This document shows, in pieces, positions 31,641-64,000 of a stretch of DNA of 64,000 nucleotides; positions within the stretch are counted from its first letter, which is position 1, and every line of letters starts with the position of its first letter. The position numbers and the translations under genes were made by a program. The stretch is from an uncultured Chthonomonadaceae bacterium (lineage in GTDB: Bacteria > Armatimonadota > Chthonomonadetes > Chthonomonadales > Chthonomonadaceae). The notes under the pieces are model-generated. The model saw only the letters and a list, made by a program, of their open reading frames with translations, had not been told where the DNA came from and did no database searches. The stretch lies in the NCBI GenBank assembly GCA_963835065.1, contig CAWIEK010000008.1, forward strand, positions 11,809-75,808. Reading direction: 5' to 3'.

Positions 31641-31942
31641 TAACTGTCAGCCTTGAAAATGGAGCGGGAAACATCGCGGCTTGCGGCAGATGCTTTCCAC
31701 GCAGAGTCAAGGGTTTTTTCCATGAAATCGTTATTTAATTTGCCGGAACAATTACGGGGATTCTCGTATAATGGCGGGGCGGCTCGCCTCGAAACCTGGC
31801 GAGGACGGGAACCCGGCAGCTTGTAAAAACGCGGGAAAGGGGCACAGGGAAGGAAAAACCGTAATTTATGCGGCTGATTTTTCCCATGCGAGAGAGTATT
31901 CTATAACCAGGAATGGTTTGCGAACCCCGTGGAGGAAAGAAA

Positions 31943-32338: not shown

Positions 32339-32361
32339 AAGGTATCGGGAACGAACGATGC

Positions 32362-32850: not shown

Positions 32851-32915
32851 ACGCGCTATTTCGCCCTGCTTTGCGCAGTTTCCTGCCGGGGGTTACGCAT
32901 CTACGCATCTACGTA

Positions 32916-32957
32916 CACCTGAACACCTGAACACCTGAACACCGAACACCGAATACC
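32916..32957 (-). repeat. (GGTGTTCA)n 8-mer arm downstream of cheA stop
   Basis: acacctga tandem units on + strand; same unit as 5234-5347. Confidence 0.8.
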
Positions 32958-32976
32958 GGCGTTTTCAGGGTAGGCT

Positions 32977-34956
32977 CTATGCCGCCTGCCGGTAAACAGT
33001 ATTGGATGTGCGCATACTTTGGATCAGCGCGGGCACATCCATAATCAAAGCCACGCGCCCGTCGCCCATAATTGTGGCTCCGGCGATGCCTTCCACCTTG
33101 CGGTAATTGGTTTCCAGGCTTTTGACGACCACCTGGCTCTGGCCGATGAGTTTATCCACGAGCAGCGCCACTTTCAGGCCGGCGTTTTCCACAATGACCA
33201 GCAAGCCGCGCGTGGGGTCGGTGACAAACGAGGCCGCGCCGAAAACCTGGTACAAGCGCATAATCGGCAGCGCCTCGCCCCGTACCAGCGCCACCTCGCG
33301 TTGGCCGGCGAGCATACGAATCTCGCCCGCTTTTGGCCGGATGCTTTCCACGATGCTTGTCAGGGGAAGCACGTACACTTCCTCGCCCACCAATACGGAC
33401 AGCCCTTCCAGAATCGCCATCGTCAGCGGCAGGCGGATGCGGAAGCGCGTACCGTGACCGGGCGTGGAAAGAAGGGTAATCGAGCCGCCGAGACTTTGCG
33501 CGGACTGCTTTACAATGTCCATGCCCACGCCGCGCCCGGACAAATCCGTCACCTGCGGAGCCGTGGAAAAGCCCGGATGAAAGATGAAGTTGTACAGCGT
33601 TTCGTCAGGCGGGGGCGGGTCGCTTTCCAACAGCAGGCCGCGCTCAATGGCTTTACGCAGGATGCGTTCGCCGTTCAGCCCACGCCCATCGTCCGACACT
33701 TCGATAACGATACTGCCCCCCTCATGGAAAGCGTTGAGCGCGATAATGCCCGTTTCGGCCTTGCCCGCGTCGCGCCGCTCTTCGGGCGTTTCCAGACCGT
33801 GATCCACGCTGTTGCGGATAAGATGCGTGAGCGGGTCGGCAATCGCTTCGATCACCGATTTGTCCAATTCCGTGTCTTCGCCGGACGTCCTCAGTTCAAC
33901 TTTCTTGCCGCAGATCGTCGCCAGATCATACACCAGGCGCGGAAAGCGGCCAAACGCATATTTGATGGGCAGCATCCGCACAGCCATCACGCGCTCCTGC
34001 AGTTCGCGGCTGGCGCGTTCCATTTCCGCCACCGCTTCGCGCAGGCGCGGCAGTTTCGCCATCGAAAAGTTCTGGACGACTTCGTTGAGCATGGACTGGT
34101 TGATAATCAACTCGCCCACCAGATTGATAAGTTTGTCTATTTTATCCGTCGCCACGCGCAGTGTTTGCGTTTCGCTTTTACCGGCAGGAACGCTTGCGCT
34201 AAGGGATGAGGGAGACACCGTAAGGGATGAGGGATAAGGGATGAGGGATGAGGGCTTCGCTTGCGTTTCCCCTTTGGCGACTGGAACGCTTACATCGAAG
34301 GCGTTTTTAGTGGAAGCGCTTACATCGAAGGCGCTTACATTAGCAGCGTTTTCATCCGAAGCAATTTCATCGAAAGCACGTGTCGGCGCAAGGGTTGGCG
34401 CGGGTGTCGGCGCGAAAAACTCCTCGAATGTTGTGGACGGAGCGGCGTCGGCGTCTGGTACAGCGGCAGGCTGCTCGTCCGGCGCTGACGCGGAACCAGT
34501 CTGTTCCACCAGCATCTGCGCGATTTCGGCGCGCAGGGCGTCCTCGTCCCACTCTTCTTCCACATAGCCCGTAAGCGCGATTACTTCTTCGATTTGAAAA
34601 ATCAGAGTTTCGGAAGCTTTGGCTGCCGCCGCCGCGCCCCGCGCCACCGCAAGCAGCGCTTTCAATTGATCCAGCGATTCCAGCAGCAAATGCGTGATTT
34701 GCGTATCTACCTGCGCTTTGCCGTTGCGCAGCAAGTCCAGCAGGGTTTCGAGGCTGTGGGTGAAGCGCGCCATATCCGCAAAACCGAATGTGGCGCTGCC
34801 GCCTTTGATGGAGTGCGCGCAGCGAAAAATGGTGTTGAGCAGTTCCGGCTCATTGGGCGCGGACGCCAGCCGCAGCAGCAGTTTCTCCAGGTCCGCCAGA
34901 ATGTCTTCGGTTTCTTCAAAAAACGTCTGCTGGAATACGCTCATATCAATGTTCAT
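32977..34956 (-). CDS. cheA: Chemotaxis histidine kinase
   Basis: FRCAHSIKGG (HPt), HLIRNSVDHG, DDGRG, SGRGVGMD, CheW domain. Confidence 0.95.
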   Translation of the reverse strand: MNIDMSVFQQTFFEETEDILADLEKLLLRLASAPNEPELLNTIFRCAHSIKGGSATFGFADMARFTHSLETLLDLLRNGKAQVDTQITHLLLESLDQLKALLAVARGAAAAAKASETLIFQIEEVIALTGYVEEEWDEDALRAEIAQMLVEQTGSASAPDEQPAAVPDADAAPSTTFEEFFAPTPAPTLAPTRAFDEIASDENAANVSAFDVSASTKNAFDVSVPVAKGETQAKPSSLIPYPSSLTVSPSSLSASVPAGKSETQTLRVATDKIDKLINLVGELIINQSMLNEVVQNFSMAKLPRLREAVAEMERASRELQERVMAVRMLPIKYAFGRFPRLVYDLATICGKKVELRTSGEDTELDKSVIEAIADPLTHLIRNSVDHGLETPEERRDAGKAETGIIALNAFHEGGSIVIEVSDDGRGLNGERILRKAIERGLLLESDPPPPDETLYNFIFHPGFSTAPQVTDLSGRGVGMDIVKQSAQSLGGSITLLSTPGHGTRFRIRLPLTMAILEGLSVLVGEEVYVLPLTSIVESIRPKAGEIRMLAGQREVALVRGEALPIMRLYQVFGAASFVTDPTRGLLVIVENAGLKVALLVDKLIGQSQVVVKSLETNYRKVEGIAGATIMGDGRVALIMDVPALIQSMRTSNTVYRQAA

Positions 34957-35154
34957 ACAGCGATACCTTTTTCATCACGGCTTTCAGCGGCCCACATGCC
35001 TGCCAACGCAGCCCTGTTTGCTCACGCTCATTCTCAACGCTTGAAAAACGGTCAGGGGAAGGGGGCGGTACTGCAAATGGGTACTATTGTCGGCTGAGTT
35101 ACCGTAATGTTTAGGTTGTTCTTGCTGCAGAAAGCGTCATCTGTCTCGGAAACG

Positions 35155-35260
35155 GGAGGGTTGGCGTTGAAAATAGCCCCTCTCATATGCTTTTCGGGAG
35201 CGGGGTTCGGCTAAAAATTAGCCCCTCTCCCAAAGTTGGGAGAGGGGTTGGGGTGAGGGC
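35155..35260. repeat. Tandem CCCTCTCCC-type REP units
   Basis: Two ~45-bp palindromic units ending ggggtgagggc. Confidence 0.75.
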
Positions 35261-35274
35261 CTCAATACTTACCT

Positions 35275-36480
35275 TTATTGCGCGGGAAGCGTAAACCAAA
35301 ACGTGCTGCCTTTGCCGTACTCGCTTTGCACCTGTACGCTGCCGCCGTGCATTTCGACGATGTGCTTCACGATGGACAGCCCCAGTCCCGTTCCCCCCGA
35401 TTGGCGCGAACGCGCTTTGTCCACGCGGTAAAAACGCTCGAATAAGCGCGGCACGTCCTGGCTGAGAACGCCGATACCCGTATCTTTCACATAGACACCG
35501 GCGCGGCTGTCCCTGATTTCCGTCCACACGGTGATTTTGCCGCCGCTTGGCGTGTACTTGATGGCATTGTCTACGAGATTGACCAGTACCTGCTCGATTT
35601 GATCGCGGTTAGCGTTGATTTCAATATGCGGGCCACCCGTGTAAGCCAGCTGCAGATTGGATTTTTCCGCCTGTGGGCTTAGTCGTTCAATCACGTCGCG
35701 TACAAGCGTGGTGAGCGCGAAGGGTTCACGTTCGGGAGCCTGTGACTCGGCGCGCGACAGGATGAGCAGGTCTTCCAGAATCCGCGTCAGGCGCTCCACT
35801 TCGCCCACAATGATGTTGACAAAGCGATTGGCGACTTCGCTATCGTACAGCGCGCCGTCCTGAAGGGTTTCCGCCATTGCGCGTATGGAGGCAAGGGGCG
35901 TTCGCAATTCGTGGGAAACATTCGCCACAAAATCCCGGCGCACCGTTTCCAGTCGGCGTAATTCGGTGACATCCTCAAACAGCAGCAGAAAGCAGGGGTC
36001 GGGGCCGGATTCCTCAAACGTGGGAAGACGCCCGTTGGGGTCGGCTATGTCGGAAAGGAGCAGGGGAATCACGCGAGTTCGCAGGGTGCGCCCGCCGATT
36101 TCAGCGCGCTGAATCTCCTGCACCTGCGCCGCGCCGGTTTCCTGCGCCCGGTTCACGAGCGCCCCGATTTCGTAGGAAAGCGTCGCTTCCAGCAGCGTTT
36201 TGCCGACAAGCGCATTCCCGCGCAGGCTCAACAGGCGTGTCGCCGCCGCATTGCCTTCCAAAATGCGTTTTTGCGCATCGGCAATGAGGACGCCGGTATC
36301 CAACTGCTCCAGCAGCAGGCGATACACTGCCGCGCTGATGCCATTGCCTTCCTGAACACTGTTCAAATTACCAACCTGTTCACTATAAACGCCCGCTTTA
36401 TCAGAGCCGAGTCGGGAACGACCCGTCTGCTCCACTGCGGTCAATCGGTCTGCGACCGGGCCACGCTTCGTCCTCACCAA
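35275..36480 (-). CDS. phoR: PAS sensor histidine kinase, PhoR-like
   Basis: LRRLETVRRDFVANVSHELRTPL, FERFYRVDKARSR, GGTGLGL. Confidence 0.75.
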   Translation of the reverse strand: MVRTKRGPVADRLTAVEQTGRSRLGSDKAGVYSEQVGNLNSVQEGNGISAAVYRLLLEQLDTGVLIADAQKRILEGNAAATRLLSLRGNALVGKTLLEATLSYEIGALVNRAQETGAAQVQEIQRAEIGGRTLRTRVIPLLLSDIADPNGRLPTFEESGPDPCFLLLFEDVTELRRLETVRRDFVANVSHELRTPLASIRAMAETLQDGALYDSEVANRFVNIIVGEVERLTRILEDLLILSRAESQAPEREPFALTTLVRDVIERLSPQAEKSNLQLAYTGGPHIEINANRDQIEQVLVNLVDNAIKYTPSGGKITVWTEIRDSRAGVYVKDTGIGVLSQDVPRLFERFYRVDKARSRQSGGTGLGLSIVKHIVEMHGGSVQVQSEYGKGSTFWFTLPAQ

Positions 36481-48251: not shown

Positions 48252-49001
48252 ATGTCTGGACATTCCAAATGGCATAACATTCGCCTGCGCAAGGGAGCGC
48301 AGGACGCCAAACGCGGCAACCTGTTCACCAAACTCGCCAAAGAAATCATCATGGCCGCCAAAAGCGGCGGTGGCAACCCCGATAACAACCTGCGCCTGCG
48401 CCTCGCCATCCAAAAGGCGCGCGAAAACTCCATGCCGCAGGACAACATCAAGCGCAGCATCCAGCGCGGCACGGGCGAAGTGGAAGGCGCGGTTTTTGAA
48501 GAAGCTGTTTATGAGGGCTATGGGCCGGGCGGCGTGGCCGTGCTTGTGGATGTGGCGACCGACAACAAAAACCGCACCGTCGCCAACATTCGCAACATTT
48601 TTAATAAGAATGGCGGGCGCATGGGCGAGTCGGGATCGGTTTCGTACCGCTTCCGTCCTATCGGCATCATCACCGTTGCCCGCGCCGCCGCCGAAGAGGA
48701 AGCCGTTTTCAATGCCGCCATCGAAGCAGGCGCGGAAGACGTGCGCGCTGATGAAGACAACTACGAGGTTATCACGCAACCCGAAGATTTCGGGGCCGTG
48801 CGGCAGGCGATTGAAGCCGCCAATATCCCGATTGCCAATGCCGAGTACACGATGGAGCCGACGGACACGGTTCAGCTTGACAGCAAGGACGCCGCGTTGC
48901 TGTTGCGCCTGATGGACCGGTTGGAAGACGATGAGGACGTGCAAAACGTCCACGCCAACTTCGACATTCCCGAAGACGTGCTGGAAGAAGCAAGCGCATA
49001 A
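48252..49001 (+). CDS. yebC: YebC/PmpR family protein
   Basis: MSGHSKWHNI, YEGYGPGG, TDNKNRT, EDDEDVQNV. Confidence 0.95.
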   Translation: MSGHSKWHNIRLRKGAQDAKRGNLFTKLAKEIIMAAKSGGGNPDNNLRLRLAIQKARENSMPQDNIKRSIQRGTGEVEGAVFEEAVYEGYGPGGVAVLVDVATDNKNRTVANIRNIFNKNGGRMGESGSVSYRFRPIGIITVARAAAEEEAVFNAAIEAGAEDVRADEDNYEVITQPEDFGAVRQAIEAANIPIANAEYTMEPTDTVQLDSKDAALLLRLMDRLEDDEDVQNVHANFDIPEDVLEEASA

Positions 49002-49004
49002 TTA

Positions 49005-49146
49005 TTCACCACCAAGACACCAAGAACACCAAGTAAAGCAGGCAATAGGAACGGATTCAGAACGCGCAAATCTTTCAATATCTGCTGCAATTTTATAACG
49101 TCATTTTTCTCGTTCTTCTTGGTGTTCTTGGCGTCTTGGTGGTGAA
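49005..49146. mobile_element. Second copy of CACCAAGA-type MITE-like element
   Basis: 29-bp TIRs (1 mismatch) identical to those at 11478-11640. Confidence 0.8.
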
Positions 49147-49248
49147 GAGTTACCCCTGCGCGTTGATTCTCGTGTCTTTTGCGGCTTGTTTCCTTCCTGC
49201 TGTGCGCAGATAACGCAATCGCGCTTCTATTTGTTTTTCGCGGAGTTG

Positions 49249-50259: not shown

Positions 50260-51288
50260 TCAATTGGCAGGCATGGTATACAACATGCAGTGATACTCGA
50301 CTGCCAGCGCCTTTCCGCCCGGCAGCCAGTCTACATTCAAGGGAAAGTGGATCGCATATTCGTCTGCCTGATATTTGGGCAGGCTTATGAGGCGGCGCAG
50401 ATGCCGCCCGCGAATATCACTGCGCCAGATTTCCATAAACGTGAGCGGCTTTGTTACTCCCGAAGAAGCTGGACGGTATCGTGATGCCTGCCGGAAAGTA
50501 GTTCGTTTTACAGTCAGCGTATAAACCAGTTGATCTCCAGAAGGGGATAGGCAGGCATTTTCAAGTTTTGCGCCTTGCGGCATGTTGATAATAGTGCGAC
50601 GATCAGGGCTTGACTTCCAGTACGAGGCGCGTTGATGGATAATCACTTTGTTTGTGTCGTCTGCGTTGTCGTCTATAGTAATCACGTTATGCCTTGTAGT
50701 GACACTGCGCTCGATGTCTTCGGGTGACATCTGCAGCTGCGCGATGTTCCTGCGAATGTGAGCCGAATTGGTAATGTCGTAGAGGAAGCAGGTATGATTC
50801 TGCGGATGAACGTCGTCCTTCGCCAGCAGGAAGTGGCGGCTGTCGGGCAGCCATACAGCAGAAGCGCTGCGCTGCAAGATTGAAAAATGCTTGGAGCCGT
50901 CCAGCGCAACAAGTTCCATTTTGTCGCCGCCTATTTCTTTGTCTATAAGCATCCATTTGCTGTCCGGGGAGAGACGCGGCGCATTGCAAACACAAAATTT
51001 GTGCATGAAGTTTGTTAGGCGGGATAATTTAGTTTCTTTTCCTGTTCCCACGTCACGGAGGAAGTAGGTGTCTCTTCCATCATTGTCGCGCGCAAACAGG
51101 ACCTTCCGTTCAGACAGCCAACACCAGCCAAAGGTATGGTGAGCATGAGCATGCCAGCCGCTCGTATTTGTTACCGACGTTGCGCGTTTACGCAAAAGCT
51201 GTTCAGGCGGCGCAGCCGCGCTGTGCGCCATCATACTACCAGCAAGTAAGCAGAAGCCGATGAGATATTGGAGTATTATTTTGCGCAT
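50260..51288 (-). CDS. Secreted TolB-like beta-propeller hypothetical protein
   Basis: Signal peptide; LSPDSKW, WLPDSRH, LSPSGDQL, WLPGGKAL blades. Confidence 0.65.
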   Translation of the reverse strand: MRKIILQYLIGFCLLAGSMMAHSAAAPPEQLLRKRATSVTNTSGWHAHAHHTFGWCWLSERKVLFARDNDGRDTYFLRDVGTGKETKLSRLTNFMHKFCVCNAPRLSPDSKWMLIDKEIGGDKMELVALDGSKHFSILQRSASAVWLPDSRHFLLAKDDVHPQNHTCFLYDITNSAHIRRNIAQLQMSPEDIERSVTTRHNVITIDDNADDTNKVIIHQRASYWKSSPDRRTIINMPQGAKLENACLSPSGDQLVYTLTVKRTTFRQASRYRPASSGVTKPLTFMEIWRSDIRGRHLRRLISLPKYQADEYAIHFPLNVDWLPGGKALAVEYHCMLYTMPAN

Positions 51289-51331
51289 AGATACCTCCTA
51301 TCAGGCAAAGCCTCTTTTTGAGGATTTAATA

Positions 51332-52592
51332 TCAAAAGTGGTGTATCAAAACGTGAGCAATGCCAACGATTGCGCCGCCGAGTACCAGCCATGCGGAGTT
51401 GACGCGCCGGCGCAGCAACAGGAGCAGGCTGATAAGGGCTAAGACAATCGTGGTTACATCTCGTAAAGCGTTTTGCGCCAACTGCCCTGTTACCAACGCC
51501 ATGAGAGAAAGAGAGGCGACATTCACGCCGTCCAGAAACGCGCCCGCCGTTGCCGATTGCCGGATGCGCGATACAAGCGGGCCGCTCAGAGCGACAAAGG
51601 CGAACGCGGGCAGGAAAATTCCCACTGTCGCCACGATTGCGCCTTTTGGCCCGGCCAGAACGTAGCCGATAAACGTTGCCGTCGTGAACACGGGGCCGGG
51701 CGTTACCTGCCCGATGGCAACGGCGTCCAGCAGTTGGCCCGTTGTCAGCCACGCGCGTTTTGTCACCAGATCGTCGCGCAAAAACGCCAGCAGCACATAG
51801 CCGCTGCCATACACGACCGAGCCGAGTTTCAGGAACACAAGCCCAAGCGAAGTCAGGCCAAGCGCGGAGGATGCTCCCGCATACAGGCTCAACAGGATGG
51901 GCAGGGCAATTATAGCGCCCAACGCGAACAGCAGAACGAAAAGCGGACGCGATACTGTCTTTGCGCTTGGCGCAAAACCAGAAAACGCCGCTCGTTGCCA
52001 GCCCGGATGCCGCCAGCGTCAGCAGTGGGTTTGCGCTCCACGCCGCCAACGCGAACGCGCCGACTGCTGCGCCACCCAAAAACCGGGTCTTGATTGCCGC
52101 GCGTCCCAGATTCCACAACGCCTGCGCGACAACAGCGACAACAACAGGCTTCACGCCATACAATGCGCCCGCGATTTGCGGCAGTTGCCCATAGCGAACA
52201 TACGCCCACGCCAGAACCATCACCAGCAGAAACGCAGGCAATATAAAGCACGTTCCCGCCAGAAACAAACCTACCCATCCGGCTTTGCGAAACCCGATGT
52301 GGATCGCCAGTTCCGTGGATGAGGGGCCGGGAACCAGATTGGACGCGCCAAGCAGGTCCAGAAATTCCGCTTTGGTGAGCCATTGCCGACGCTCGACAAC
52401 CTCCTGCTGCATCATAGCGATATGCGCGGCAGGCCCGCCGAAAGCCGTTGTTCCCAAACGCAGGAACAGCAGCGCCAATTCGCGGGGTGTCGCCGGCTTG
52501 CCTGCCGCAATCGTTTTAACAGCCTCCAGTTCAGTCACGATTGTTTCCGCAAAAGATAGTTCCGCAGACTTGCCATTGGGTTCAGCGTTCAT
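51332..52592 (-). CDS. chrA: Chromate efflux transporter (frameshift near 51950)
   Basis: AFGGPAAHI, PGPSSTEL; second half YGSGYVL, QVTPGP. Confidence 0.9.
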
Positions 52593-52606
52593 AGCGAGTT
52601 CACTAA

Positions 52607-53755
52607 AAGCGGCTTGCGTAATTGGTGATCTGGCTCCGCGATGCGTGTTGTGTCCCATTTTTTACTCTGTGGCTTGCCAGACACCATTGTTCCTTGCCCT
52701 TATGTACTTTTAAGCAACCAGTTCCATCTGTCCGGTTTGCCGGAAGTTGAGCAACCCGGCAATGACACAGAAGACGCTTTCATGGTCGTCGAACTTGCCG
52801 CGCCACACTTGGGCCATACTCTGCCACTTCTTGAGCCGGGCAAAATGATGCTCCACGTAAATGCGTTGGGTGGAGAGCATGTAATTATAAGCGCGTTCGA
52901 GGATGTTCTGCTCTTGATTGCGCGGCTTTTTGATCGGCTGCTGCACGTCCAGCTCAGGATGCGCGGTGTCCGTGCCTTCATAGCCTTTGTCCAGACGCAC
53001 TTTGAGGCCGGAAGGCATCTGCGGCAGAACGCCCGAAGCGCGCAGCACGGTCATGTCGCTAATACAACCGGGCAAGCCGCCGAAGACATGGAGAATGCTC
53101 GTCTTGGTAGCGACAATCTGGGTCTTGACGGTATGGTCTTGCTGTTTGCCACTATACGCCAGTTTGCGCTTGAGTTTGTCCGTCGGCTGTGGAATGGATT
53201 GCTCCGTGGCGTCGAGAAGCACTTCCTTGATCTCGGGATACGCGGCCAAGAGTTCTTCGAGAGTGCCAATGCGCTTGCGCCGCTTCTGTGTGCCCGCGTG
53301 GTCGGCAGAAGGCTGCCCGCTGGGGAGGGGTGACGTGTCGGCAGGTGTGTCGCTTGCCAGATCACGTAGGGGCGCATCCCGCAAAGGTGTGGGCAGCACT
53401 TCCTGCAAGATCGGCAGCAAGCGCTCGTGCAATTCGCGGCTGATGTTGCTCTCGTCCAAGTCAAAGAGGTAGCCGAGCAAACTCTGCCCGACGTACAAAC
53501 GCAGGTACATCAGTCCCATCAGCAGCCGTTCGGGCAACGCGAGGCGAAACGGATGCCCGGAGGTGAGCGCGCCGTGACGCTGCGGACGTTGCCGCTTGGC
53601 GAGTTCCATGGCTTCATACGCCGGAGCGACTTGGGCGAGGAGCGTGTCGAACTCCGCGACGCACAGACCCGTGAATGCCTGAAAGTGGCGCGGCTTGCGC
53701 CGTAACTTGGTTAAGGTAAGCATAGGCTGATTTTACCCTATTACGCAAGAGGCTT
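52607..53755 (-). mobile_element. IS5-family (ISL2-like) insertion sequence
   Basis: TIRs aagcggcttgcgtaat / attacgcaagaggctt (14/16), flanking TAA duplication. Confidence 0.8.
52710..53723 (-). CDS. Transposase (HTH_Tnp_4 + DDE_Tnp_4 type)
   Basis: FQAFTGL, DATEQSI, YSGKQQDHTVK, DKGYEG, RIYVEH..ARLK. Confidence 0.92.
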   Translation of the reverse strand: MLTLTKLRRKPRHFQAFTGLCVAEFDTLLAQVAPAYEAMELAKRQRPQRHGALTSGHPFRLALPERLLMGLMYLRLYVGQSLLGYLFDLDESNISRELHERLLPILQEVLPTPLRDAPLRDLASDTPADTSPLPSGQPSADHAGTQKRRKRIGTLEELLAAYPEIKEVLLDATEQSIPQPTDKLKRKLAYSGKQQDHTVKTQIVATKTSILHVFGGLPGCISDMTVLRASGVLPQMPSGLKVRLDKGYEGTDTAHPELDVQQPIKKPRNQEQNILERAYNYMLSTQRIYVEHHFARLKKWQSMAQVWRGKFDDHESVFCVIAGLLNFRQTGQMELVA

Positions 53756-53758
53756 TAA

Positions 53759-53836
53759 GGGTTCGTAAATCTATAACTTCCCGAACCAGCGGGAACGCCG
53801 ACCTTCGCAAGCGGGAAGTTGTTAATTTACAGACCC
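53759..53836. mobile_element. 78-bp MITE-like element abutting the IS
   Basis: 25-bp inverted ends (20/25), TAA on both sides. Confidence 0.5.
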
Positions 53837-53868
53837 TAAGCGAAGGGACGCCGATAGTTCGCAGTTCC

Positions 53869-53906
53869 TGCATCCCTATCAACTACAAACTATCAACTAT
53901 CAACTA
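53869..53906 (-). repeat. (AGTTGAT)n arm directly after bcp stop
   Basis: atcaact units on + strand. Confidence 0.8.
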
Positions 53907-53907
53907 T

Positions 53908-54381
53908 TTAAGCGTTTTCCGCCGTCTCGCGGATGGCGGCCAACACTTCGTCGCTGTGTCCCGGCACTTTTACCTTGCGGAAAATGAAGCGGATTTTGCC
54001 GCCCGGCGCAATGACATACGTGGCCCGCTCGATTCCCATGTAAGTACGCCCGTACAGGGACTTTTCCGCCCACACTTCGTAATCTTCCGCCGTCTTGTGT
54101 TCCGTATCCGCCAGCAGGCGAAACGGCAGGCTGTACTTGTCGGCAAAGGCAAGCTGCGCCTTGCTTTCATCGGGGCTGATGCCCAACAGCACCGCATTTT
54201 CGCCGCTAAACTCCTCCCGCGCATCCCGAAACGCGCAGGCTTCAGCCGTGCAGCCGGACGTATCCGCTTTCGGATAGAAAAACAGCACAACCGTCTTATC
54301 CCGCAAGCCCGACAGCGTAACCGTTTCGCCGTTCTGATCCGGCAAACTGAAATCAGGGGCAGGGTCGCCAACATGCAGCAT
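53908..54381 (-). CDS. bcp: Thioredoxin-dependent peroxiredoxin
   Basis: FYPKADTSGCTAEACAFRD, GIERAT. Confidence 0.93.
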   Translation of the reverse strand: MLHVGDPAPDFSLPDQNGETVTLSGLRDKTVVLFFYPKADTSGCTAEACAFRDAREEFSGENAVLLGISPDESKAQLAFADKYSLPFRLLADTEHKTAEDYEVWAEKSLYGRTYMGIERATYVIAPGGKIRFIFRKVKVPGHSDEVLAAIRETAENA

Positions 54382-54442
54382 CGTTTATAATCCTTTGAAA
54401 TTGTAGTCTGAGTAATCCCCGGCAGATTGCTTCTTATTTTCT

Positions 54443-55488
54443 CTAATTCTCTGTGGTGAGGGACTGTTCCTGCTCAATGCGCTGCCGCTCCTGCTGCAAG
54501 GCAGTCCGCAGTTCTGTCTTCGGTTGGCAGATGGAGTTGGTAGCGGGAAGCAAACACTTGCGCGTTGGCATTGTGGAGGGTATAGCGAACAACCGCGTCG
54601 TTTTTATCGGTGCAGAGGATCAGGCCGACGGGCGGGTTTTCCCCTCGCGCATTTCTTCGGCCTCGTAGTAGCCGGTGTAAAAGAGCATTTGCCCAACGTC
54701 CTGATGCGAGAGAGCGCCCACTTTGAGGTCAATCAGCACGAAGCAGCGCAGGGTACGGTGATAAAACACGAGGTCAATGTAGAAGTTATCGCCGTCAACC
54801 GTGATGCGCTTTTGGCGGGCAACAAAGAAGAAGTCGCGTCCAAGTTCCAGCAAAAACTCTTGCAGCTGATCCATAAGCGCCTGTTCCAGATCGGTTTCCA
54901 GCAGGCGATGGGATTGCGGCAGGCCGGTAAACTCCAGAACAACCGGGTCTTTAATCAGGTCGGACGGCTGAAAAATCTCGTTGCCCTGTTCCGCCAGTTG
55001 CAGCAGCCCGGCTTTGTCGCGTGACAGGGCAAGCCGTTCATACAGCAGGGAAGCAATCTGCCGTTCCAACTCCCGCGTAGACCAGTTGGCTTTGACACAT
55101 TCCGCCTCATAAAAACTCCGCGCTTCCGGCTTTTCAACGCGTCCGCAGCAAGCGGTAATGCGTCCAACTCAATTCTTGACGCAGTGCGTCACGAATTGGG
55201 AACGCATTGTAGAACGTCCGCATGTCCGACAAATTGGATCGGTCAAACCCTTTGCCAAACTCCTGCGTCAACTGCTTAGACAGATTTTGCAGCAGGCTTT
55301 TACCATAATCCGCCCGCGCCTGCCCGCGCTGTTCTTCCTCAACGATCTCGCGCCCAATCTCCCAATACGCGCGTACCATCTCGGCATTGACCGCCTGCAA
55401 CGCCTGATGACGTCCGCGCTTGCAGAATGTCGCGAATACGTTGGTAAACCGGATCAAAATTGTCGTCTGTCTTGGATAGGTTTGACAT
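54443..55488 (-). CDS. DUF1016/YhcG PD-(D/E)xK nuclease-family protein (several frameshifts)
   Basis: YWEIGREIVEEEQ, LSWTHY, IKDPVVLEF, FLLELG, FYIDLVFYH, IDLK. Confidence 0.88.
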
Positions 55489-55557
55489 GGCTTGTTCGTT
55501 CTCACAAGGCTTTATGTGCAGACGAAAGATGAATTTGCGACGCAGCGCGTTGCGAAT

Positions 55558-55946
55558 TCACCAGATTACGCGCACAAGGCCACTGTTAGTAATAGACACA
55601 TCGCGTGTCAGGCAGGGACAATTACGTGCCAGTGCCACACCCACAATAATGCGGTCGTGCATTTCAGGTACGGCGGCAAGCCGGTCAAATTGTCGCACAT
55701 CACTCGCCTGAAAATTAACAAACTGGAACTGCCTTGCCGCCATTAAGCGAACCAACTCCTGCGCAAAGTTGAGGGGTTGCTTCAGTTTGACGTTGACGTA
55801 GTAGAGTTCCGCAAGGACAATCGCCGGTATGAGAATACGCGCCTGTCCTTGATCGGCGGCGTCGAAAACGGCAGAAGCGTTCGCGCCCAATTGCGACAAT
55901 TTCAGCAAATACCAGAGGAGGGCATGCGTGTCGGCAACATACTCAA
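55558..55946 (-). CDS. PIN/VapC toxin (start codon obscured, probable indel)
   Basis: YVADTHALLWYL, EMHDRII, LTRD. Confidence 0.85.
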
Positions 55947-56194
55947 GTAACTTCCTTGTCCTCCCACTCCTTCTCCCACTCGCTTCTAACTTCCTTTAAG
56001 ATGGCGTCAATATCCATATCTTCAGGTATCTTCCCTGCCCATGCGCCGCGCAAACTCACAGGCAATTGCGAAGTTTCAACAACTTTGGAAGGCAGAAACA
56101 TCACTACCACTTCCGCCCCCTCCTCGACATCCACTGGTTTTTCAGATAGTTCCACACCACCGTTCCGATATGTGCCAGTCACTGCTGTCAGCAT
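55943..56194 (-). CDS. Antitoxin-like protein
   Basis: MLTAVTGTYRNGGVEL..; small, acidic tail, overlaps PIN gene. Confidence 0.7.
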   Translation of the reverse strand: MLTAVTGTYRNGGVELSEKPVDVEEGAEVVVMFLPSKVVETSQLPVSLRGAWAGKIPEDMDIDAILKEVRSEWEKEWEDKEVT

Positions 56195-56365
56195 TGTTTC
56201 TCTCCTTTACATCTTCAATACGCAACTTCGGCAATTCGGAACGCGCTGCATTCCGAATTGCCATTCCCAGGCAGAAGGTAGATTCGAGAAGCAGTGCGTC
56301 TCGAATCTATGCCCCCACTACAATTCTCGACGCAGCGCGTCGAAAATCACACGGAATAACGTGGA

Positions 56366-56911
56366 TCAGGCAGTCAGTGCAAATAAGTCGGCAACGCGGC
56401 AACGGAACGCAGGCAGCAAATCGCCGCCCGTAATTTCCTGTTCGGGCGTATACTCTACAAACTGCATGGGTGACGTGTACGCGATAACGCGGCGCGTGTC
56501 CGGGAACAGATACCACACTTGCTGTGCGCCGGACGCGAAGTATTCCCCCCGCTTACGCGCAATATCGGCGGGTTCCTCGGACGGCGACACGATTTCGATA
56601 CACAAATCCGGGGCCGCATCTCCGAAGGTGTCCGGCGCAACGCCGCCCGGCAACCGTTCCCGCCGCGTAAACGACACATCCGGGGCGCGTACATTGCCCG
56701 ATGCCATGCGAAACCCGGCCTGCGAACTGCACAGAGCGCCCCGCCCGATTACGGCAGGCGTCAGGCGGTAAATGACAATAGCCGCGATCTCATCGTTGCG
56801 TACGCTTCCCGGCACTTCCTGCACCTCCCCGTCCACAAGTTCAAACTTGCGCCCCTCATCCGGCAGGCGCATAAACTCTGCTTCGGTCATGTAAGGTTTC
56901 GCTATCGTCAT
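56366..56911 (-). CDS. Uma2/DUF820 endonuclease-like protein
   Basis: FELVDG, RAPDVSF, PDLCIEIVSPS, GGDLLPAF. Confidence 0.92.
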   Translation of the reverse strand: MTIAKPYMTEAEFMRLPDEGRKFELVDGEVQEVPGSVRNDEIAAIVIYRLTPAVIGRGALCSSQAGFRMASGNVRAPDVSFTRRERLPGGVAPDTFGDAAPDLCIEIVSPSEEPADIARKRGEYFASGAQQVWYLFPDTRRVIAYTSPMQFVEYTPEQEITGGDLLPAFRCRVADLFALTA

Positions 56912-56940
56912 TCCCATTCTCCTCGCCAGCATGGTGACGT

Positions 56941-57140
56941 TTAACTCTGTGCTTTTTGCAAATGAGTATTTAAGATCAAGGGTTCTCGTCTCCCATTGTG
57001 GAAAACATAGCACAAGTCTTTGAAGTCAAATACGGCGTCAACTGCATGAATAACCTCATGATGGTTAGGGCAGACGAGCATCAAATTCTGCAAATTGTCT
57101 GACCCTCCTCGTGAAAGATAAACAATGTGGTGCAAGAATG
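56941..57140 (-). pseudogene. C-terminal remnant of HNH endonuclease
   Basis: HHIVYLSRGGSDNLQNLMLVCPNHHEVIH; upstream part missing. Confidence 0.7.
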
Positions 57141-57223
57141 ATGGAGGTACTTGTGCTATAATACGCATAGAGTTTGTTCGCATTCAACCGGGCAAACATA
57201 CTAAGGGGATATAGGCACAAACG

Positions 57224-58204
57224 ATGAAAATGCTCAATCTTAAATTGCTGTTTTTAACCTTTATCTTAATATACATTTGTAGTTTGAAATCTGCGTGGTC
57301 ACAATCCATATACATTAGTGATAACAGTACATCGGTACATCAGTATACCATTAGAGGTCAGGAAGTACGAATACTAACTCCAGGTAGCTCATTTACACCT
57401 GAAGGCATGACAATCGGGCCAGATGGTCAGTTATATGTTGCGAGTCAGTATACAAATCCTGCAAATAGCAACCGGGTAGTCGGCATTTATCGGTTTAATC
57501 CCAATACCGGGCAGTATCTTGGGACAGTAGGTTCATTTACTCCTAATGACTTCCTCTACGATCTTACGTTCGGGCCGGATGCTGCCTTATATGCAACTGG
57601 ATTCGGCAAGGTTTACAAAATTGATGTAGCTACTAATGCAACAAGCGTAGTGACCAGTACATACTTCACGCCACTTGGGTCTTCTTCAAAAAGTCTGTTC
57701 ATTCCTTATGGCCTAACCTTCAGACCTGATAATGGACATTTGCTCCTCTCGAATTTTAACAACGGCCTTGATGGTACAATCGAAGAGTTTGATCTTAGCA
57801 ATGGAACCTCCCACACATTTGCAACTGGATTAGCTGGTCCATTTGGAATTGTGTTCGGACAAGACAACAGGCTTTATATTGCGGACGGGAACGTCTCCGT
57901 AGTAGGAATCAACGGCGGAGTAGCGAAAGTTTACTTGTCTAACACATCAACTATGGATTACTTCAACAATCCTCGTTACCTTGCTTTCGATGGTTCCGGT
58001 AATCTATACGTCACAAACAGCGGCATAACTCGTGTACCAGAGTTCAACAGCACAGGCACATATTTGGGCTATCTGGATACTTCAGGTGCTTGGGGCATCG
58101 CCATCAAATCTACTAACCCTGTTCCTGAACCTTCGATAATTGCCTTCTTTATCGCAAGCGTTCTAACTGGTATTACCTTCCTCCGTTCCCGTAAGCCTGT
58201 GTAG
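57224..58204 (+). CDS. Low-GC PEP-CTERM Vgb/NHL-like beta-propeller protein
   Basis: Signal peptide, TIGPDGQLY/TFGPD blades, VPEPS-TM-RSRK. Confidence 0.88.
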   Translation: MKMLNLKLLFLTFILIYICSLKSAWSQSIYISDNSTSVHQYTIRGQEVRILTPGSSFTPEGMTIGPDGQLYVASQYTNPANSNRVVGIYRFNPNTGQYLGTVGSFTPNDFLYDLTFGPDAALYATGFGKVYKIDVATNATSVVTSTYFTPLGSSSKSLFIPYGLTFRPDNGHLLLSNFNNGLDGTIEEFDLSNGTSHTFATGLAGPFGIVFGQDNRLYIADGNVSVVGINGGVAKVYLSNTSTMDYFNNPRYLAFDGSGNLYVTNSGITRVPEFNSTGTYLGYLDTSGAWGIAIKSTNPVPEPSIIAFFIASVLTGITFLRSRKPV

Positions 58205-58307
58205 AAGGTAACCTCATTCTGACGAAACCTCCAACGATTTTACATGCAACGGCGTTGCTGTTGATTGCCTGAATTGCTTTTACACAGTCCCTAAAGCGTC
58301 AATAATG

Positions 58308-59970
58308 TTAGTATTTTGAAGTGGCGAACCGACGTCGGCTATCGGGGTACGTCACAGATGAACCTCTGCCACTCCCTGAGTCTACCTCATTGTACTTCTG
58401 CAACTGTGAGATAAGGAAACGTTCCTCTGGATTTATACAAGCCAGCAATTGTGTATAGAAAAATTCTTGCATTTGTTCTACTGGCAAGCTAGTCGCGGCG
58501 ACAGCAGTATAGCGTCTCATTTCCTGATAATAGTTGTTCTTACGAAAAACGTCCATCAGTAAATCGTTGCCTTGACCATGTTGTTGCAAAGCCCGTAAGC
58601 TCTTGCCTTTTCTTGAAGCATTAGAACCAGACCAATGGGTAATAGGGCGTGATGCATCACGTTCAAAGCGCTCCACAAGTTTTTGTCGAAGTGAAGCGTT
58701 GTGAATCATTGTGGTAAGGCTGAAACTTCCGTAGCAAAACGCCAATTCAGTATCCAGCATATCTGCTTTTTCCAATATTATTTTACCGAGTAGTTCTTGA
58801 ACCGGACTACAACGGATATTGCTATTGAATATGGGCAGCCATCCCGCTAAAGCATTAGCTGCGCGAACAGAATGGTCAATATAACAGTCGAACAATTCTT
58901 GCAACAGGGTATCTGGCACACTCTGTATTGTCTTCATATTGTTGCGAATAGTAGCTAACAGGTAGTTGACCGCGTAGCGGTCAATATCGAAATCGTTGAA
59001 CTCCTCGCGCAACATACGCATAGCAATCTGAATTTTCTGCAAGCTTGACACAGATGCGTGTTTTAACGTCGTTTGTTGAAACCGTCCTACCATATTGTCA
59101 AAATGAGCAAGACGATCTGCTAAGATAGCGCAAACACCGAACTCTGATTTCGAGACATTGACAACAAGCCCTAGCTCAGAAAACATAGTTTCCAGTTGCT
59201 CATTTTGCCAAGCAACATTCGCTTTAGTACTTCCAAACAAGCAGTAATCATCTACAAACCGGCAGGCGTGGTAGTTGGGCTTGTCACAAGCATAATCTAT
59301 CCTCAATAAAAAGGAGTTCTGCAAAGAAAAAACTTGCATCAAGTCCTTGAGGAATTCCTACTCTGTCATCAGGGAACCAGCCGTCCAGCAAGCGAAACAA
59401 ACGATGCTTATGAGAAGCTAAAACCTCCTCCTTTGCAAAGAAGGCGTCTTGGTAATTTGTGGCTATAGCCTCTTCCAACATGCCATGTTGTATATTGTTG
59501 AAGAAGCTTTGTATGTCTACTCGTTGGAAGAATGTGTAGCGAGAACACTGATGCTTCAGGAACTCCCTAAAGCCCGACCAGCGTTGAAAAGGCTGCAACT
59601 CAAACCATATCTCTGATGTTGACGAGAGATTAGGTTTAAAAGAAAAGGATATATCATTCTGTAGTTTGCGCGAACGTACTCCAAGATGTCGCGCTAAACT
59701 GTGATATTCAACGGCCTCTGGAACTGGTTGGTAATGAAGGGGCCGGATTGAGCCACGATGAAATTTTGCAACTTCATACGTAACTGCATTACTCCCTGCA
59801 ACGTTGTTGTACTCGTTCTGACGAATAGCGTTATATATCCATTCCTTTCCACTGTCATGACCGAATATTGCGGATGACAAGTAAGGTAAGGGATATTCAC
59901 TATCATCCAACTCTTTCAGGCAGTTGACAATCAACTGTTCTATCACAAGGCCATTCGCAATTATAGACAA
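58308..59970 (-). CDS. Reverse transcriptase, UG/Abi-like with helical C-terminal domain (~553 aa after removing one base from A5 run 59308-59312)
   Basis: AK..IRP, VDIQSFFNNIQH, GIPQG, RFVDDY, LGLVVNVSK; TTG start with AGGAGG RBS. Confidence 0.88.
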
Positions 59971-60030
59971 CTCTACACCCTCCTACAGTACAGCTACTAC
60001 ATCTACATGCAACCGACGTTCCTAAACAGT

Positions 60031-63000
60031 TTACCTGCTTACGAGCAAACGTCCATTAGTTGAACTATCTAACGCGCGTTGGTTTGACGACGAGGAAGCC
60101 GCCTCCGTCCATGTAGATTGTCTTCCAAGCAGGCGTTCTACATCCTGCTTGAAGGCATCAGAATACTCAGCGAGTAAATCCGTGCATACTTCGTAGATGT
60201 GTTCACCGTCAGGAACTCGAAGATGAACTGGCATTGCATTCCCGTTTCCTCTATGTCGCAGAATGGTGTCATGTACCATTTGAAGTGTGTTACGCCTTGA
60301 AGCGTCAACCTGAACAACAATTTTGCGTGGGCCGACGTTCGCGTTCGCGCCCCCACTGCCCAACGCCGTAATGGTTTCGGCCAGTATTTCCACCGTGACG
60401 CCGCCCTCATCGTCCTCGCGCACCCGTTCCCGGTGATTGGCCCGCCCGCCGAGCAGGACAATTTTGTCTTTTTCCAGCAGATGCCCCGCTGTGGCGTATG
60501 TGGACGGGAACATGGTGCAGGCAACGGTTCCGGTCATGTCTTCCAAAGTGAAGAAGGCCATCGGTTCGCCGCTTTTTTTGGACGTGAACGGCTTGATACT
60601 CGTGATAATGCCGCCAATCGTCACTTCCGTCCGATCCGCTTTTTCCGGCAGTTCGGACACGCGGATTGCGTCTCGCCTTTTCAAAGCGCGGCATAAACGC
60701 TTGCAGGGGATGGTCGGAAATGTACAGGCCGAGCAGGTCGCGCTCGAAGCCGAGCAATTGCGCGGACGGGTAATCGGGGATATTGGGGATGGGAATGGTT
60801 TCCACCGTCGGCCCCACATCCGCATCGTCGCCGAACATATCCGACAGCGACGCCTGCCCGTTCTTCTTGTCCTTTTGCGACCGCTGCGCCGCCTGACAGC
60901 ACGGGTCCAGGGCTTCGATCAGGGCGCGGCGGTTGGTATGGCCGGGGAGGGACGCGAACGCGCCGCTTTGTATCAGCGCTTCCATCGTTCCCCGCGACAC
61001 GCTGCCCGTCTCGCTGCCCATCACGCGCTGGCAGAAATCGGCCAGACTGGCAAACGCCCCGCCCTCTTCCCGAACCCGCAAAATCACTTCCACCGCGGCT
61101 CGTCCGACGCTCTTGATGGCGGCAAGGCCGAAGCGAATAGATTGCGAGGGTGTCGGGTGTCGGGTGTCGGGTGTAGATATTGTCCGTTGTAAGATTTCCC
61201 CCGACACCCGATACCCGATACCCTACACCCTTCCACCGTAAAGTCCGCCCCACTGGAATTAATGTCCGGCGGGAGGACGGGAATGCCCATGCGCTTGCAC
61301 TCGTCCATGCACGTTACGAGTTTGTCGGATTTTTCGATGAAGCAGGCCAGCAGGGCGGACATGTATTCGACGGGGTAGTTGGCCTTTAGATAGGCGGTTT
61401 GATACGCCACCATCGCGTAGCAGACGGCGTGGGCTTTGTTGAAGGCGTAACCGGCGAAGGGTTCCATCAGGTCGAAGATTTCGTTGGCCTTCTTTTCCGA
61501 AACGCCGTTTTCCCTTGCGCCGCGCAAAAAGTTTTCGCGCTCCTGCACCATCACTTCTTTTTTCTTTTTGCCCATGGCGCGGCGCAGCAGGTCGGCCTGT
61601 CCCAGCGTGTAGCCGGAAATAATCTGCGCGATCTGCATCACCTGATCCTGATACACGATGACGCCATACGTTTCGTCCAGCAGTTCCTTTAGTTTTTCGT
61701 GCGGGTATTCGATCTTTTCCAGCCCGTGCTTACACCGGACGAAGCGGGGAATATGCGCCATCGGGCCGGGGCGGTACAGGGCCACCATAGCCGCCACGTC
61801 GCGCACACTCGTCGGCTTCAACTCCTGAACGTACCGGCGCATTTGCGGCGATTCCAACTGGAACACGCCCACGCACTCGCCGTTGCCCAAGAGTTCGTAG
61901 GTTTTGCGCACGTCTTCGCCGTCGCCTTCGAGCGGCAGTTGCGCACATCCAGTTTTTTGCCGGTCGTCTGCTCCACGTTTTTCAGCGCCTGTCCCAAAAT
62001 GGTCAGGTTAATCAGCCCCAAAAAGTCCATTTTCAGCAGGCCGATTTTTTCCAGCATGTTCGCGTTATACTGCGTCACGCAGCCGCCGTCCGCGCTCCGC
62101 GTGAGCGGCGTGTACTCCACAAGCGGGTTGTGCGAGATGATAACGCCTGCGGCGTGAACGCTGGCGTGGCGCGAAATGCCTTCCAAGCGTTTCGCGGTAT
62201 CAATCAATTTGCGGGCGGCGGGGTCGCGCACATAAGCGTTCTTGAATTCCGGGTTGGCGTCCAGCGTCTTGTCAATGGTCATGCCGACGGGGATCGTCGG
62301 GATCATCTTGCACAATTTGTCCACGTCGCCGGCGGGATAGCCCAACGCCTTTCCCGCGTCTTTCAGTACGGCGCGGGCGGCAAGGGTTCCGAACGTGATG
62401 ATCTGCGCGACGCGGGCTTCTTCGGGAATGTCCTGATTGGGGCTGTACTTTTTGGTGACGTAATCAATCACTTCCCCCCGGCGCGTGTCCTCAAAATCCA
62501 TATCCACATCGGGCATCTGAACGCGCTCCGGGTTCAGAAACCGCTCAAACGTCAGGCCATACTCAACCGGGTCAATGTCGGTAATGTCCACGAGGTAGAG
62601 ACAAGGCAGCCAGCAGCGGAACCGCGCACGCCGTAGTAAATGCCCTTCTTGGCGGCAAACTGCGCAAAGTCGCGCACGATGAGAATATACTGCGCGAACC
62701 CGGTTGTCTGGATAATGCCGAGTTCATAATTCATGCGGTCAATCACGCGCTGCGGGCGGGTTGCCATTGTACTTTTTAAGCAGCCCTTCTTCGGACAGCT
62801 TGGTGAGATACTCAAGCGGCGTGTATTCGGCGGGGAAACCGGGGGAGGGCATGGGCGCGCGCCCGAATTCCAGTTCTACATGGCAGCGTTCCGCGATTCC
62901 CAATGTGTTTTCGATGCAGCCGCGGGTGCAGCTTGTGAAACAAATCCTTCATCTGCTGCGATGATTTCAGATAAAACTCCTGCGTGGCGTATTTCAGGCG

Positions 63001-63713
63001 ATCCGTATCCGTGACAACCGAACCCGTCCCAATGCACAGCAAAATATCATGCGCGTCGGCGTCCGGCCCGGTGAGATAATGCACATCGTTGGAGCAAATC
63101 ACGGGCAGGCCGAGTTCGCGCGAAATTTTGAGCAGTTGGGTATTGGAGTGTTCCTGTTCGGGCAGGTTGTGGTTCTGAATCTCTACATAATAGTTGTCGC
63201 GCCCGAACAGATCGCCATAGTACGCGCAGGCGTCGCGGGCGGAATCGTAGTCGCCGCGCAGCAGGTGCGAGTTGATTTCGCTGCCCAGACAGGCGGTGGT
63301 GGCGATCAGGCCCTCGTGGTACTTTTCCAGCAGTTCGCGGTCAATGCGGGGCTTGTAGTAAAAGCCTTCCAGCGCGGCGATGGTGGTGAGTTTGAGCAGG
63401 TTCTTGTAGCCTTCGTTGTTGCGGGCCAGCAGCACCATGTGGTACGCGGACTGGTCCAGCTTGGCCTCTTTTTTCGCCGATGCCGGGGCGCGACATACGC
63501 CTCCACGCCCAAAATCGGCTTCACGCCCTTGTCCTTGCATTTGCCGTAGAAATCCGCCATGCCGTACATGACGCCGTGATCGGTCAGGGCAAGGGCGGGC
63601 ATTTCCATTTCCGCCGCGCGGCTGATCAGATGCCCGATGCGGTTGGCTCCGTCGAGGAGAGAGAATTCGGAGTGAACATGAAGGTGAACAAAATCGCTGC
63701 TGGTATCGCTCAT
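60031..63713 (-). CDS. dnaE: DNA polymerase III alpha subunit (multiple frameshifts, probable sequencing errors)
   Basis: FVHLHVHSEFSLLDG, RGSAAG, FERFLNPER, PDVDMDF, HAAGV, KMDFLGL, YAFNKAH, IRFGLAAIK, OB fold. Confidence 0.95.
61148..61230. repeat. 83-nt inverted (GGGTGTC)n hairpin inserted inside dnaE
   Basis: mRNA-strand termini GGGTGT...ACACCC; lies between codons for FTVE and SQSIRFGL. Confidence 0.9.
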
Positions 63714-63733
63714 GGTTGCCTCGGAAGGAAGTT

Positions 63734-63842
63734 AGGTTTCAGGTATCAGGTTTCAGGTATCAGGGGAGAACGCTGCTGCATTCGTCTCATCTATAAGGAA
63801 GAAGAGCCTTTTCTGACACCTGAAACCTGACACCTGAAACCT
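63734..63842. repeat. Inverted (AGGTTTC/AGGTATC)n hairpin in dnaE leader
   Basis: Left arm 63734-63763, right arm 63813-63842. Confidence 0.85.
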
Positions 63843-64000
63843 TATTTAGTTCGCGCCACTCCACGTTGCCCTAGATGTGGCGCATGAGGCTATTCTAGCG
63901 GTTTTATCCGCCAAACACAACTAGACATATCTGTACGTATGTGCGTACTGGTGTTTGCTGCAAGTCACTGATAACAACTGCGCTGAGGAATTTACAGGAA

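Follow-up and report, generated by a model that had tools for sequence, protein, structure and literature searches.

The 64,000-nucleotide stretch of DNA studied here (the window) carries a reverse transcriptase (RT) gene directly behind dnaE, the gene of the replicative polymerase, and we asked which kind of enzyme it encodes, whether it is intact and whether its position next to dnaE bears any functional meaning. The gene is present as two overlapping open reading frames on the minus strand. The 5' ORF (59284..59970, 228 aa) comprises an N-terminal extension, the fingers, motif A (DIQSFF) and motif B' (GIPQG) and is matched by the RT_UG21 profile with 62.5 bits, while the 3' ORF (58308..59342, 344 aa) contributes the FVDD box, an NxxK motif, an alphaRep tail and a terminal tyrosine. 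The portion of the 3' ORF past the break shares its frame with the homologues, and reading through both ORFs via one +1 frameshift yields a protein of 553 aa (X marking the break) which is devoid of in-frame stops. This agrees with the initial annotation, according to which one homopolymer correction joins the two ORFs into an RT of about 553 aa harbouring these three motifs. Motif A (59500..59517, minus strand) spans D152-I153 to F157, and the FVDD catalytic box (59247..59258, minus strand) provides D240 and D241 in read-through numbering. The predicted alphaRep (HEAT-like) helical solenoid extends over about residues 300-530 (58380..59072, minus strand, limits approximate) and contains the tail motifs GKxxRA and EMxRYxA of the RT clade. 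The protein ends at Tyr553 (58311..58313, minus strand), a candidate priming residue which lies in a Pro-x10-Tyr-stop pattern. A Shine-Dalgarno-like AGGAGG (59979..59984, minus strand) is located 8 nt ahead of the TTG start of the RT. The low GC content and the orientation described earlier were recovered as well: the RT has a GC content of 0.43-0.44 (GC3 0.42-0.44) compared to about 0.57 across the window, and it starts 60 nt behind the dnaE stop on the same strand. On balance, we favour the reading that the gene is likely intact and encodes a 553-aa Class 1 UG/Abi RT of an unnamed, rare lineage, which would act as a single-gene, template-free and probably tyrosine-primed anti-phage enzyme and which likely resides on a cassette behind dnaE.

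Class 1 is described in the accessible part of Mestre et al. (PMC9226505) as the architecture of an RT followed by a HEAT-like C-terminus. The RT domain of the window protein contains the catalytic Asp triad, and C-terminal alphaRep (HEAT-like) repeats are present in the model of its homologue P0013. In this AF2 model (pLDDT 77) the RT core reaches to about residue 290 and is succeeded by 13 helices without any strand; a second AF2 run of P0013, based on a weaker alignment (pLDDT 53), was used for the tail alone. In both models the C-terminal 15 residues have a pLDDT below 50. Foldseek ranks DRT6, DRT4/UG15 and Abi-P2 first for the P0013 model (E 4e-10 to 5e-9). In VIA-align only DRT6, DRT4 and AbiK are superimposed end to end (424-455 residues, Z 13.4-16.6, rmsd 5.3-6.1); higher Z scores, up to 20.3 over about 250 residues, are obtained for the RT cores of group II and DGR enzymes, and in sequence as well as in Z group II intron RTs lie equally near to the RT core. 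Taken by itself, the tail resembles HEAT/ARM solenoids with a best Z of 11.1, a value common for helical repeats. In an RT-domain tree of 26 rows the window RT lies outside the group II-like branch (support 100/100), the deep Class 1 branches of this tree, built with few references, being without support. By its fold we assign the window RT, with its RT core and predicted alphaRep tail, to the Class 1 UG/Abi architecture, in line with the helical C-terminus and the divergent, stand-alone UG/Abi RT proposed beforehand. The systems which that proposal had set aside are likewise not found: no retron VTG motif is read in either ORF, no retron model occurs among the best 25 PADLOC matches of either ORF and no msr-msd is found in the Rfam scan; group II maturase models yield 16-20 bits versus a cut-off of 300, with no Rfam match to intron flanks; the region 54000-62000 contains no long direct repeat which might serve as the TR/VR pair of a DGR; and none of the 11 ORFs scanned matches a Cas family.

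Membership of a named UG group was judged by profile scores and by the 26-row tree, and both suggest that the window RT likely fits none of them. The UG21 profile reaches 62.5 and 17.7 bits for the two window ORFs and 71.7 bits for P0013, versus 485 bits for L017. Best profile scores, mostly confined to the RT core, amount to 72 bits for P0013, 53 bits for P0005 and 48 bits for the RT of genome G296, whereas true UG19, UG21, UG9, DRT6 and DRT8 proteins used as controls score 407-486 bits (UG19 444-465, DRT8 410, UG9 486). For the same three homologues the UG19, UG22, UG32, UG9 and DRT8 profiles give at most 68 bits, UG22 and UG32 being without a member control. The more distant relatives P0007 and P0008 reach 111-113 bits at best, P0009 and the tail P0002 have no profile match at 1e-9, and the NCBIfam models of DRT3, DRT4, DRT5 and AbiA yield 14-20 bits per ORF versus curated cut-offs of 200-550. 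In the tree, which comprises one to three representatives of five named groups as well as several long branches, and from which P0002, P0003, P0006 and L026 were omitted as partial or redundant, the window RT, P0004, P0013 and P0005 form a branch of their own (98/91). P0009 joins it weakly (91/64), and no named representative joins it with support. Placement within a characterised retron or DRT clade, which the initial annotation had named as fatal to its proposal, is thus not observed.

The best surviving alternative, to which we grant a possible but clearly minor share, is that the window RT belongs, as a strongly diverged sequence, to one of the named Class 1 groups (UG21, UG22, UG32, UG19 or DRT8). 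The models of exactly these groups are always top-ranked, they comprise Class 1 proteins of similar length with a HEAT-like C-terminus, the GIPQGPSASF motif is common to UG19 proteins, and P0010 achieves only 216 bits with UG21, indicating that the models cover some relatives poorly. In contrast, the core members of the clade do not exceed 72 bits, so that the window RT scores 6-9 times lower than members and in the RT core only, its branch is separate, and no HEPN or other partner gene is seen next to it. If this alternative were true the mechanism would stay the same and the novelty of the lineage alone would drop. UG21, UG22 and UG32 are the models nearest to the window RT, and defence predictions for these three groups are given as inconclusive in the accessible part of Mestre et al. 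(PMC9226505). Our literature search returned nothing on the mechanism of the nearest UG groups, and an unnamed clade is beyond the reach of a text search. A phenylalanine after the serine in motif B' was considered as a clade hallmark and rejected since it is common to UG19, UG21 and DRT6-like rows.

Relatives of the RT are scarce. With the 5' ORF as query, HMMER run in full against 1.84 billion representatives returned nine matches. Whole homologues (P0005, 570 aa; P0009, 533 aa; P0013, 538 aa) cover the two ORFs in a single chain of 533-570 aa and are 23-43% identical (P0013 36% identical to the window RT), while P0004 and P0002 represent two halves of one RT on contigs which are both 14332 bp long. 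Word-indexed searches, which are near-blind at such distances, found one relative for ORF2 and none for ORF1 among longer proteins, and P0006 alone when run with a profile. In two scans of 400 genomes of the phylum, which largely represent one sample, a single full-length relative of 553 aa turned up in G296; none of 67 other genomes of the class and none of 40 related genomes contains one. P0013 has no match among plasmids and phages. The scans for related loci revealed nothing in metagenome or viral contigs and yielded three Vibrio UG19 genes. Among 28 stretches from a DNA scan for the tail motifs one is a true relative (L043, identical to P0008, too short for context); P0008 used as a query matched group II RTs only. 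Atlas matches of the RT are generic RTs or unnamed clusters. Judged from these searches and from base composition, the lineage is rare and foreign to its host. The G296 RT, the only full-length relative with readable surroundings, is a lone insertion flanked by an oligopeptidase-like gene on one side and a small gene on the other, with no defence neighbours and no dnaE seen near it. G296 also harbours a second unclassified Class 1-like RT (L101 / L030, G296:C12; at best 90 bits to UG21), and G045 (L024) an RT-PrimPol fusion.

Whether the gene can be functional depends on the nature of its break. Frameshift-aware alignment to P0013, P0005, P0009 and P0004, all of which span the site, agrees on one +1 event at 59304-59310 and on zero in-frame stops; the affected stretch (59304..59312, minus strand) includes an A5 run at 59308-59312. 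The three dnaE copies of the assembly contain 7, 20 and 7 frameshifts and no stop, which amounts to about two frameshifts per kb in the dnaE adjoining the RT. As at least one of these copies must be functional, yet all carry frameshifts, the dnaE region appears error-prone. Furthermore, in related contigs of run X1 the window dnaE breaks 60670, 61936 and 62920/62923 are offset by compensating indels; this run contains short related contigs only, and among the pieces listed none spans the break of the RT. P0003, which may originate from the same sample as the window, is a 99% identical copy of the 5' part of the RT in which a single indel occurs elsewhere, near 59597. The sequence evidence thus makes it highly probable that the frameshift is an assembly artefact, and a genuine lesion, which had been named as the other finding that would overturn the initial proposal, most likely does not exist. 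We consider it rather improbable that the frameshift is genuine and that the RT decays as a passenger in the manner of the adjacent HNH remnant. Such decay would be in keeping with this remnant and a split DUF1016 gene close by and with two relatives which look damaged (the split P0004/P0002 and P0005 with its FVDG). Moreover, 14 of 15 other housekeeping genes of the assembly (G000) with a match align in one frame, so that the assembly errors are local and real decay is conceivable. Against it stand the single lesion located in a homopolymer next to a stop-free dnaE with its high frameshift density, the strong ribosome binding site, the retention of every catalytic residue and the different indel of P0003. 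Two further genes of the window are frameshift-split, namely one at 51276-52658 which we take to be chromate-transporter-like and the DUF1016 gene at 54620-55505, and the X1 contigs lack one base at window position 55145.

With an intact enzyme assumed, its chemistry may be considered in the light of DRT4 (UG15), which, according to the accessible part of PMC12783706, synthesises random single-stranded DNA without a template, primed by Tyr125, with R75, N271 and K274 positioning the dNTP and D149, D240 and D241 binding metal. By motif position the counterparts of R75, D149, D240, D241, N271 and K274 in the window RT are R76, D152, D240, D241, N271 and K274. Within the clade R76 is conserved in 8/8 rows, the catalytic D152 in 9/9, D240 in 8/8, N271 in 5/7 and K274 in 7/7. 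Like DRT4 and DRT6, the window RT is a stand-alone protein of about 500-550 aa in which RT and helical tail correspond along the full length. It differs from them in that structural identity is as low as 11-14%, the HMM score stays below 40 bits where matched, the clade has Phe or Trp in place of the Tyr of YxDD, and no conserved tyrosine lies near the DRT4 priming residue Y125. Indeed, no clade tyrosine is conserved where DRT4, AbiK, Abi-P2 or AbiA prime. In the latter three the priming tyrosine is located in a fingers loop or in the linker between RT and alphaRep, as far as the accessible part of PMC12783706 describes it. They share the RT plus alphaRep fold with the window RT, and their template-free, tyrosine-primed synthesis serves as the model which we borrow; in contrast to them the clade lacks a conserved tyrosine at fingers loop or linker as well as a HEPN domain.

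Instead, the clade tends to end in tyrosine. Five of the eight members with an available C-terminus have a terminal Tyr (window RT, P0002, P0013, P0009 and G296 RT), and seven of eight have one within the last two residues, P0007 and P0008 carrying it as the second to last; four sequences share the exact Pro-x10-Tyr-stop spacing. P0005 has none and also lacks the second Asp (FVDG). The rough background for a terminal Tyr is 69 of 4847 long ORFs, but the clade members are kin and their count is therefore not independent; three unrelated RTs likewise end in Tyr. In the accessible parts of the respective reports DRT3b is primed from Y666 of 667 residues (PMC13174585) and DRT9 from the C-terminal Y496/Y498 (PMC12483538). 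Because the clade ends in Tyr as these primers do, terminal priming is predicted, and we give priming from Tyr553 of the window RT about an even chance. DRT3b (UG8) resembles the window RT as a Class 1 RT with an alphaRep and a C-terminal tail ending at a conserved Tyr (PMC13174585, accessible part) and, by position only, in an acidic residue at 22 and an Arg near 71-76: D22, present in 7/8 rows, matches the dATP gate E22 of DRT3b in position, whereas DRT4 has K24 there. On the other hand, the window RT has neither a DRT3a partner nor an ncRNA, and its HMM match to DRT3b is weak (23 bits). No second RT as in DRT3 is found among the neighbours, the two RVT_1 matches of the genome being on other contigs, and none of 401 genomes contains a DRT3b above cut-off.

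Taken together, these likenesses suggest an enzyme which would act as a single-gene anti-phage system by producing single-stranded DNA without a template, in a protein-primed manner and probably from its C-terminal Tyr. By analogy with DRT4, DRT6, AbiK and DRT3b it may form an oligomer; host exonucleases would keep the DNA product low, and phage infection would provoke a toxic build-up resulting in abortive defence. For DRT4 the accessible part of PMC12783706 reports that a phage protein guards the product from ExoI and that its build-up kills the cell; DRT4 and DRT6 are listed there as single-gene Class 1 systems, a mode also given as comparable for both in the accessible part of PMC13213688. 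The defence function of the window RT is predicted from its class. The DNA products of most Class 1 UG/Abi groups are stated to be unknown in the accessible part of PMC13174585. The present lineage is compact, consists of a single gene and likely falls outside the named groups; with intact homologues at hand and one particular residue predicted to prime, it offers a ready test case, even though the RT taken alone is one more variation on a known Class 1 theme. To our knowledge, every Class 1 UG/Abi group studied so far has a different chemistry. What appears new in these sequences is the C-terminal Tyr at the DRT3b/DRT9 priming position and the foreign origin of the last ~90 codons of dnaE.

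The latter concerns the position of the gene. The host-like body of this dnaE copy (copy W; 60331..63713, minus strand) contains seven frameshifts and no stops. Its 3' end (60031..60330, minus strand) encodes the C-terminal domain, which in DnaE binds the tau subunit of the clamp loader, and shares 51% amino acid identity with the native end as represented by copy A and G001, which agree with each other at 83% there. GC3 drops from 0.73 in the body to 0.41 in the foreign end, close to that of the RT, and the 3' end is 0.13 lower in GC than the body compared to at most 0.03 in 29 family loci. As its frame is kept and the differences, distributed 27/17/56 over the codon positions, fall mostly on third positions, the foreign end is likely functional. 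The low-GC block (~56900-60330, 3.4 kb) begins inside dnaE; judged from its composition, the RT and the replacement DnaE C-terminal domain likely arrived on it together, and since the block starts within dnaE and supplies a new C-terminal domain the RT probably sits there as a cassette which uses a recurrent site of insertion. The dnaE 3' end of G023 (5 contigs) occurs twice in direct orientation, as a repeat of 250 bp (94%; L092, G023:C4, 6922-7171 and 14792-15041) which begins at the same linker as in the window; the 7.6 kb bracketed by it contain IS elements together with an AccI-like restriction-modification pair. Direct repeats of the dnaE 3' end are likewise seen at L096 599-750 with L100. 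In G020 a detached copy of 158 bp (91%) lies at a contig start. Only these two duplications were counted; extra dnaE ends in G011 and G015, 70-74% identical contig-edge pieces, were dropped as possible contamination. Downstream of dnaE, G001 carries an IS3, an AIPR gene and the same Uma2, and G352 has GmrSD directly behind it, while housekeeping genes follow in most of the 29 family loci. These few cases point to the site behind dnaE as a possible recurrent insertion site. No integrase is seen in the low-GC block or in the bracketed G023 island, and a search of the window for a displaced native dnaE end came up empty. Here the last domain of an essential replicase has been exchanged for a foreign one with 51% identity, and relatives gain defence DNA at this site too, which makes it a candidate insertion hotspot; the literature searched contains nothing on dnaE as an insertion site or hotspot. 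L092 additionally shows a 114-bp gene-end duplication (84%; 1862-1975 / 2615-2727) bracketing two small genes, which suggests gene-end duplication as a general mode of insertion in the family.

G000 contains three dnaE alleles (A, B and W) which are 6-9% apart, mostly by third-position and synonymous differences: W at window 60031-63995, A and B in tandem on C23 (G000:C23:27297-31242 and 31841-35498) with about 600 bp between them. Copy A has the native end and the native upstream gene, copy B stops where W diverges, and C8 stops at the repeat start. The assembly has many contig-end overlaps of 92-99%, and the alleles represent either a tandem array or a strain mixture. At 61147-61224 dnaE carries a hairpin insertion of 7-bp repeats (25-nt arms, 92% complementary) which differs among the three copies; similar hairpin elements recur genome-wide. 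A conserved unannotated gene without a Pfam match lies upstream of dnaE in G000 and G001 (G000:C23:26640-27206 and L060 6052-6600).

A bolder version of our favoured reading would have an unnamed Class 1 lineage combine terminal-Tyr priming with an acidic gate at D22 to write sequence-biased DNA without RNA or a partner RT, on cassettes which swap the DnaE C-terminal domain. We consider this combination unlikely; if it were true each defence acquisition would also alter the replisome-binding end of DnaE. Less probable still is that the RT and the foreign DnaE domain form a functional pair in which the RT protects the replisome or is drawn to it. This would be reminiscent of UG9, a Class 1 RT encoded beside a DNA polymerase, for which the accessible part of PMC9226505 lists a family A polymerase (PolA) as conserved partner. 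The common composition and joint arrival of both parts, the purifying selection indicated by the 27/17/56 distribution, the codirectional arrangement and the presence of UG9 among the nearer models are compatible with such a pair. However, the neighbour in the window is a host family C dnaE, other cargo occupies the same site, the G296 relative is situated away from dnaE, and neither the 29 family loci, read with 0.3-1.5 kb of flank, nor 11 longer stretches show an RT-like ORF behind dnaE, so that the loci surveyed give no sign of a conserved link. The special connection to the replicative polymerase suggested by the initial annotation is therefore not borne out: the 3' end of dnaE has a foreign origin of its own, duplicates of this gene end flank other insertions in two further genomes, and since no RT stands behind dnaE in the 29 loci and the G023 island lies between dnaE repeats, the adjacency is likely positional, not functional. 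Co-transcription with dnaE is nevertheless plausible from the 60-nt gap, in which no terminator-like site is called; predicted promoter and terminator counts are at chance level.

The ncRNA independence which had been put forward as possible agrees with our scans, as there is no sign of an ncRNA. The Rfam scan of 54000-64000 gave no credible match (five weak miRNA matches, all below gathering), and the RT flanks, 60 nt on the dnaE side and 103 nt of non-coding DNA downstream, are no more stably folded than shuffled controls (z -0.39 to -1.17) and share no sequence with G296 or L043. That the RT copies a small cis-encoded RNA template like DRT2, DRT3a or DRT9, as the 103 nt downstream and the DRT9 structures among the fold matches might be taken to imply, is hence very improbable in view of these results, the mere 44 nt downstream of the G296 RT and the Class 1 alphaRep architecture.

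Regarding the surroundings, the RT had been placed at the edge of an island with HNH, Uma2, PIN and DUF1016 genes. These are present, the HNH endonuclease gene as an 80-aa remnant whose frame is closed upstream (56941..57183, minus strand), Uma2 (56366..57013, minus strand) with host-like GC and its best G001 match also downstream of dnaE, followed by a PIN pair, a split DUF1016 gene and an IS. Overlooked were the low-GC 3' end of dnaE and an NHL/beta-propeller PEP-CTERM gene (57224..58204, plus strand), a low-GC passenger of the same block which lies between RT and HNH and is convergent with the RT. A 25-bp palindrome, matched six times in the entire genome, has five of these copies between 55172 and 56347: three upstream of the PIN pair, one in the space separating PIN from DUF1016 and one within the DUF1016_N gene. 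The five copies possibly serve as operators for autoregulation. Two short dispersed families of intergenic repeats, with dozens of copies genome-wide, are represented at ~48999-49156 and 53760-53910. The IS at 52581-53759 is intact (DDE_Tnp_4 and HTH) and, given a 99.3% identical copy on C57, has been mobile recently.
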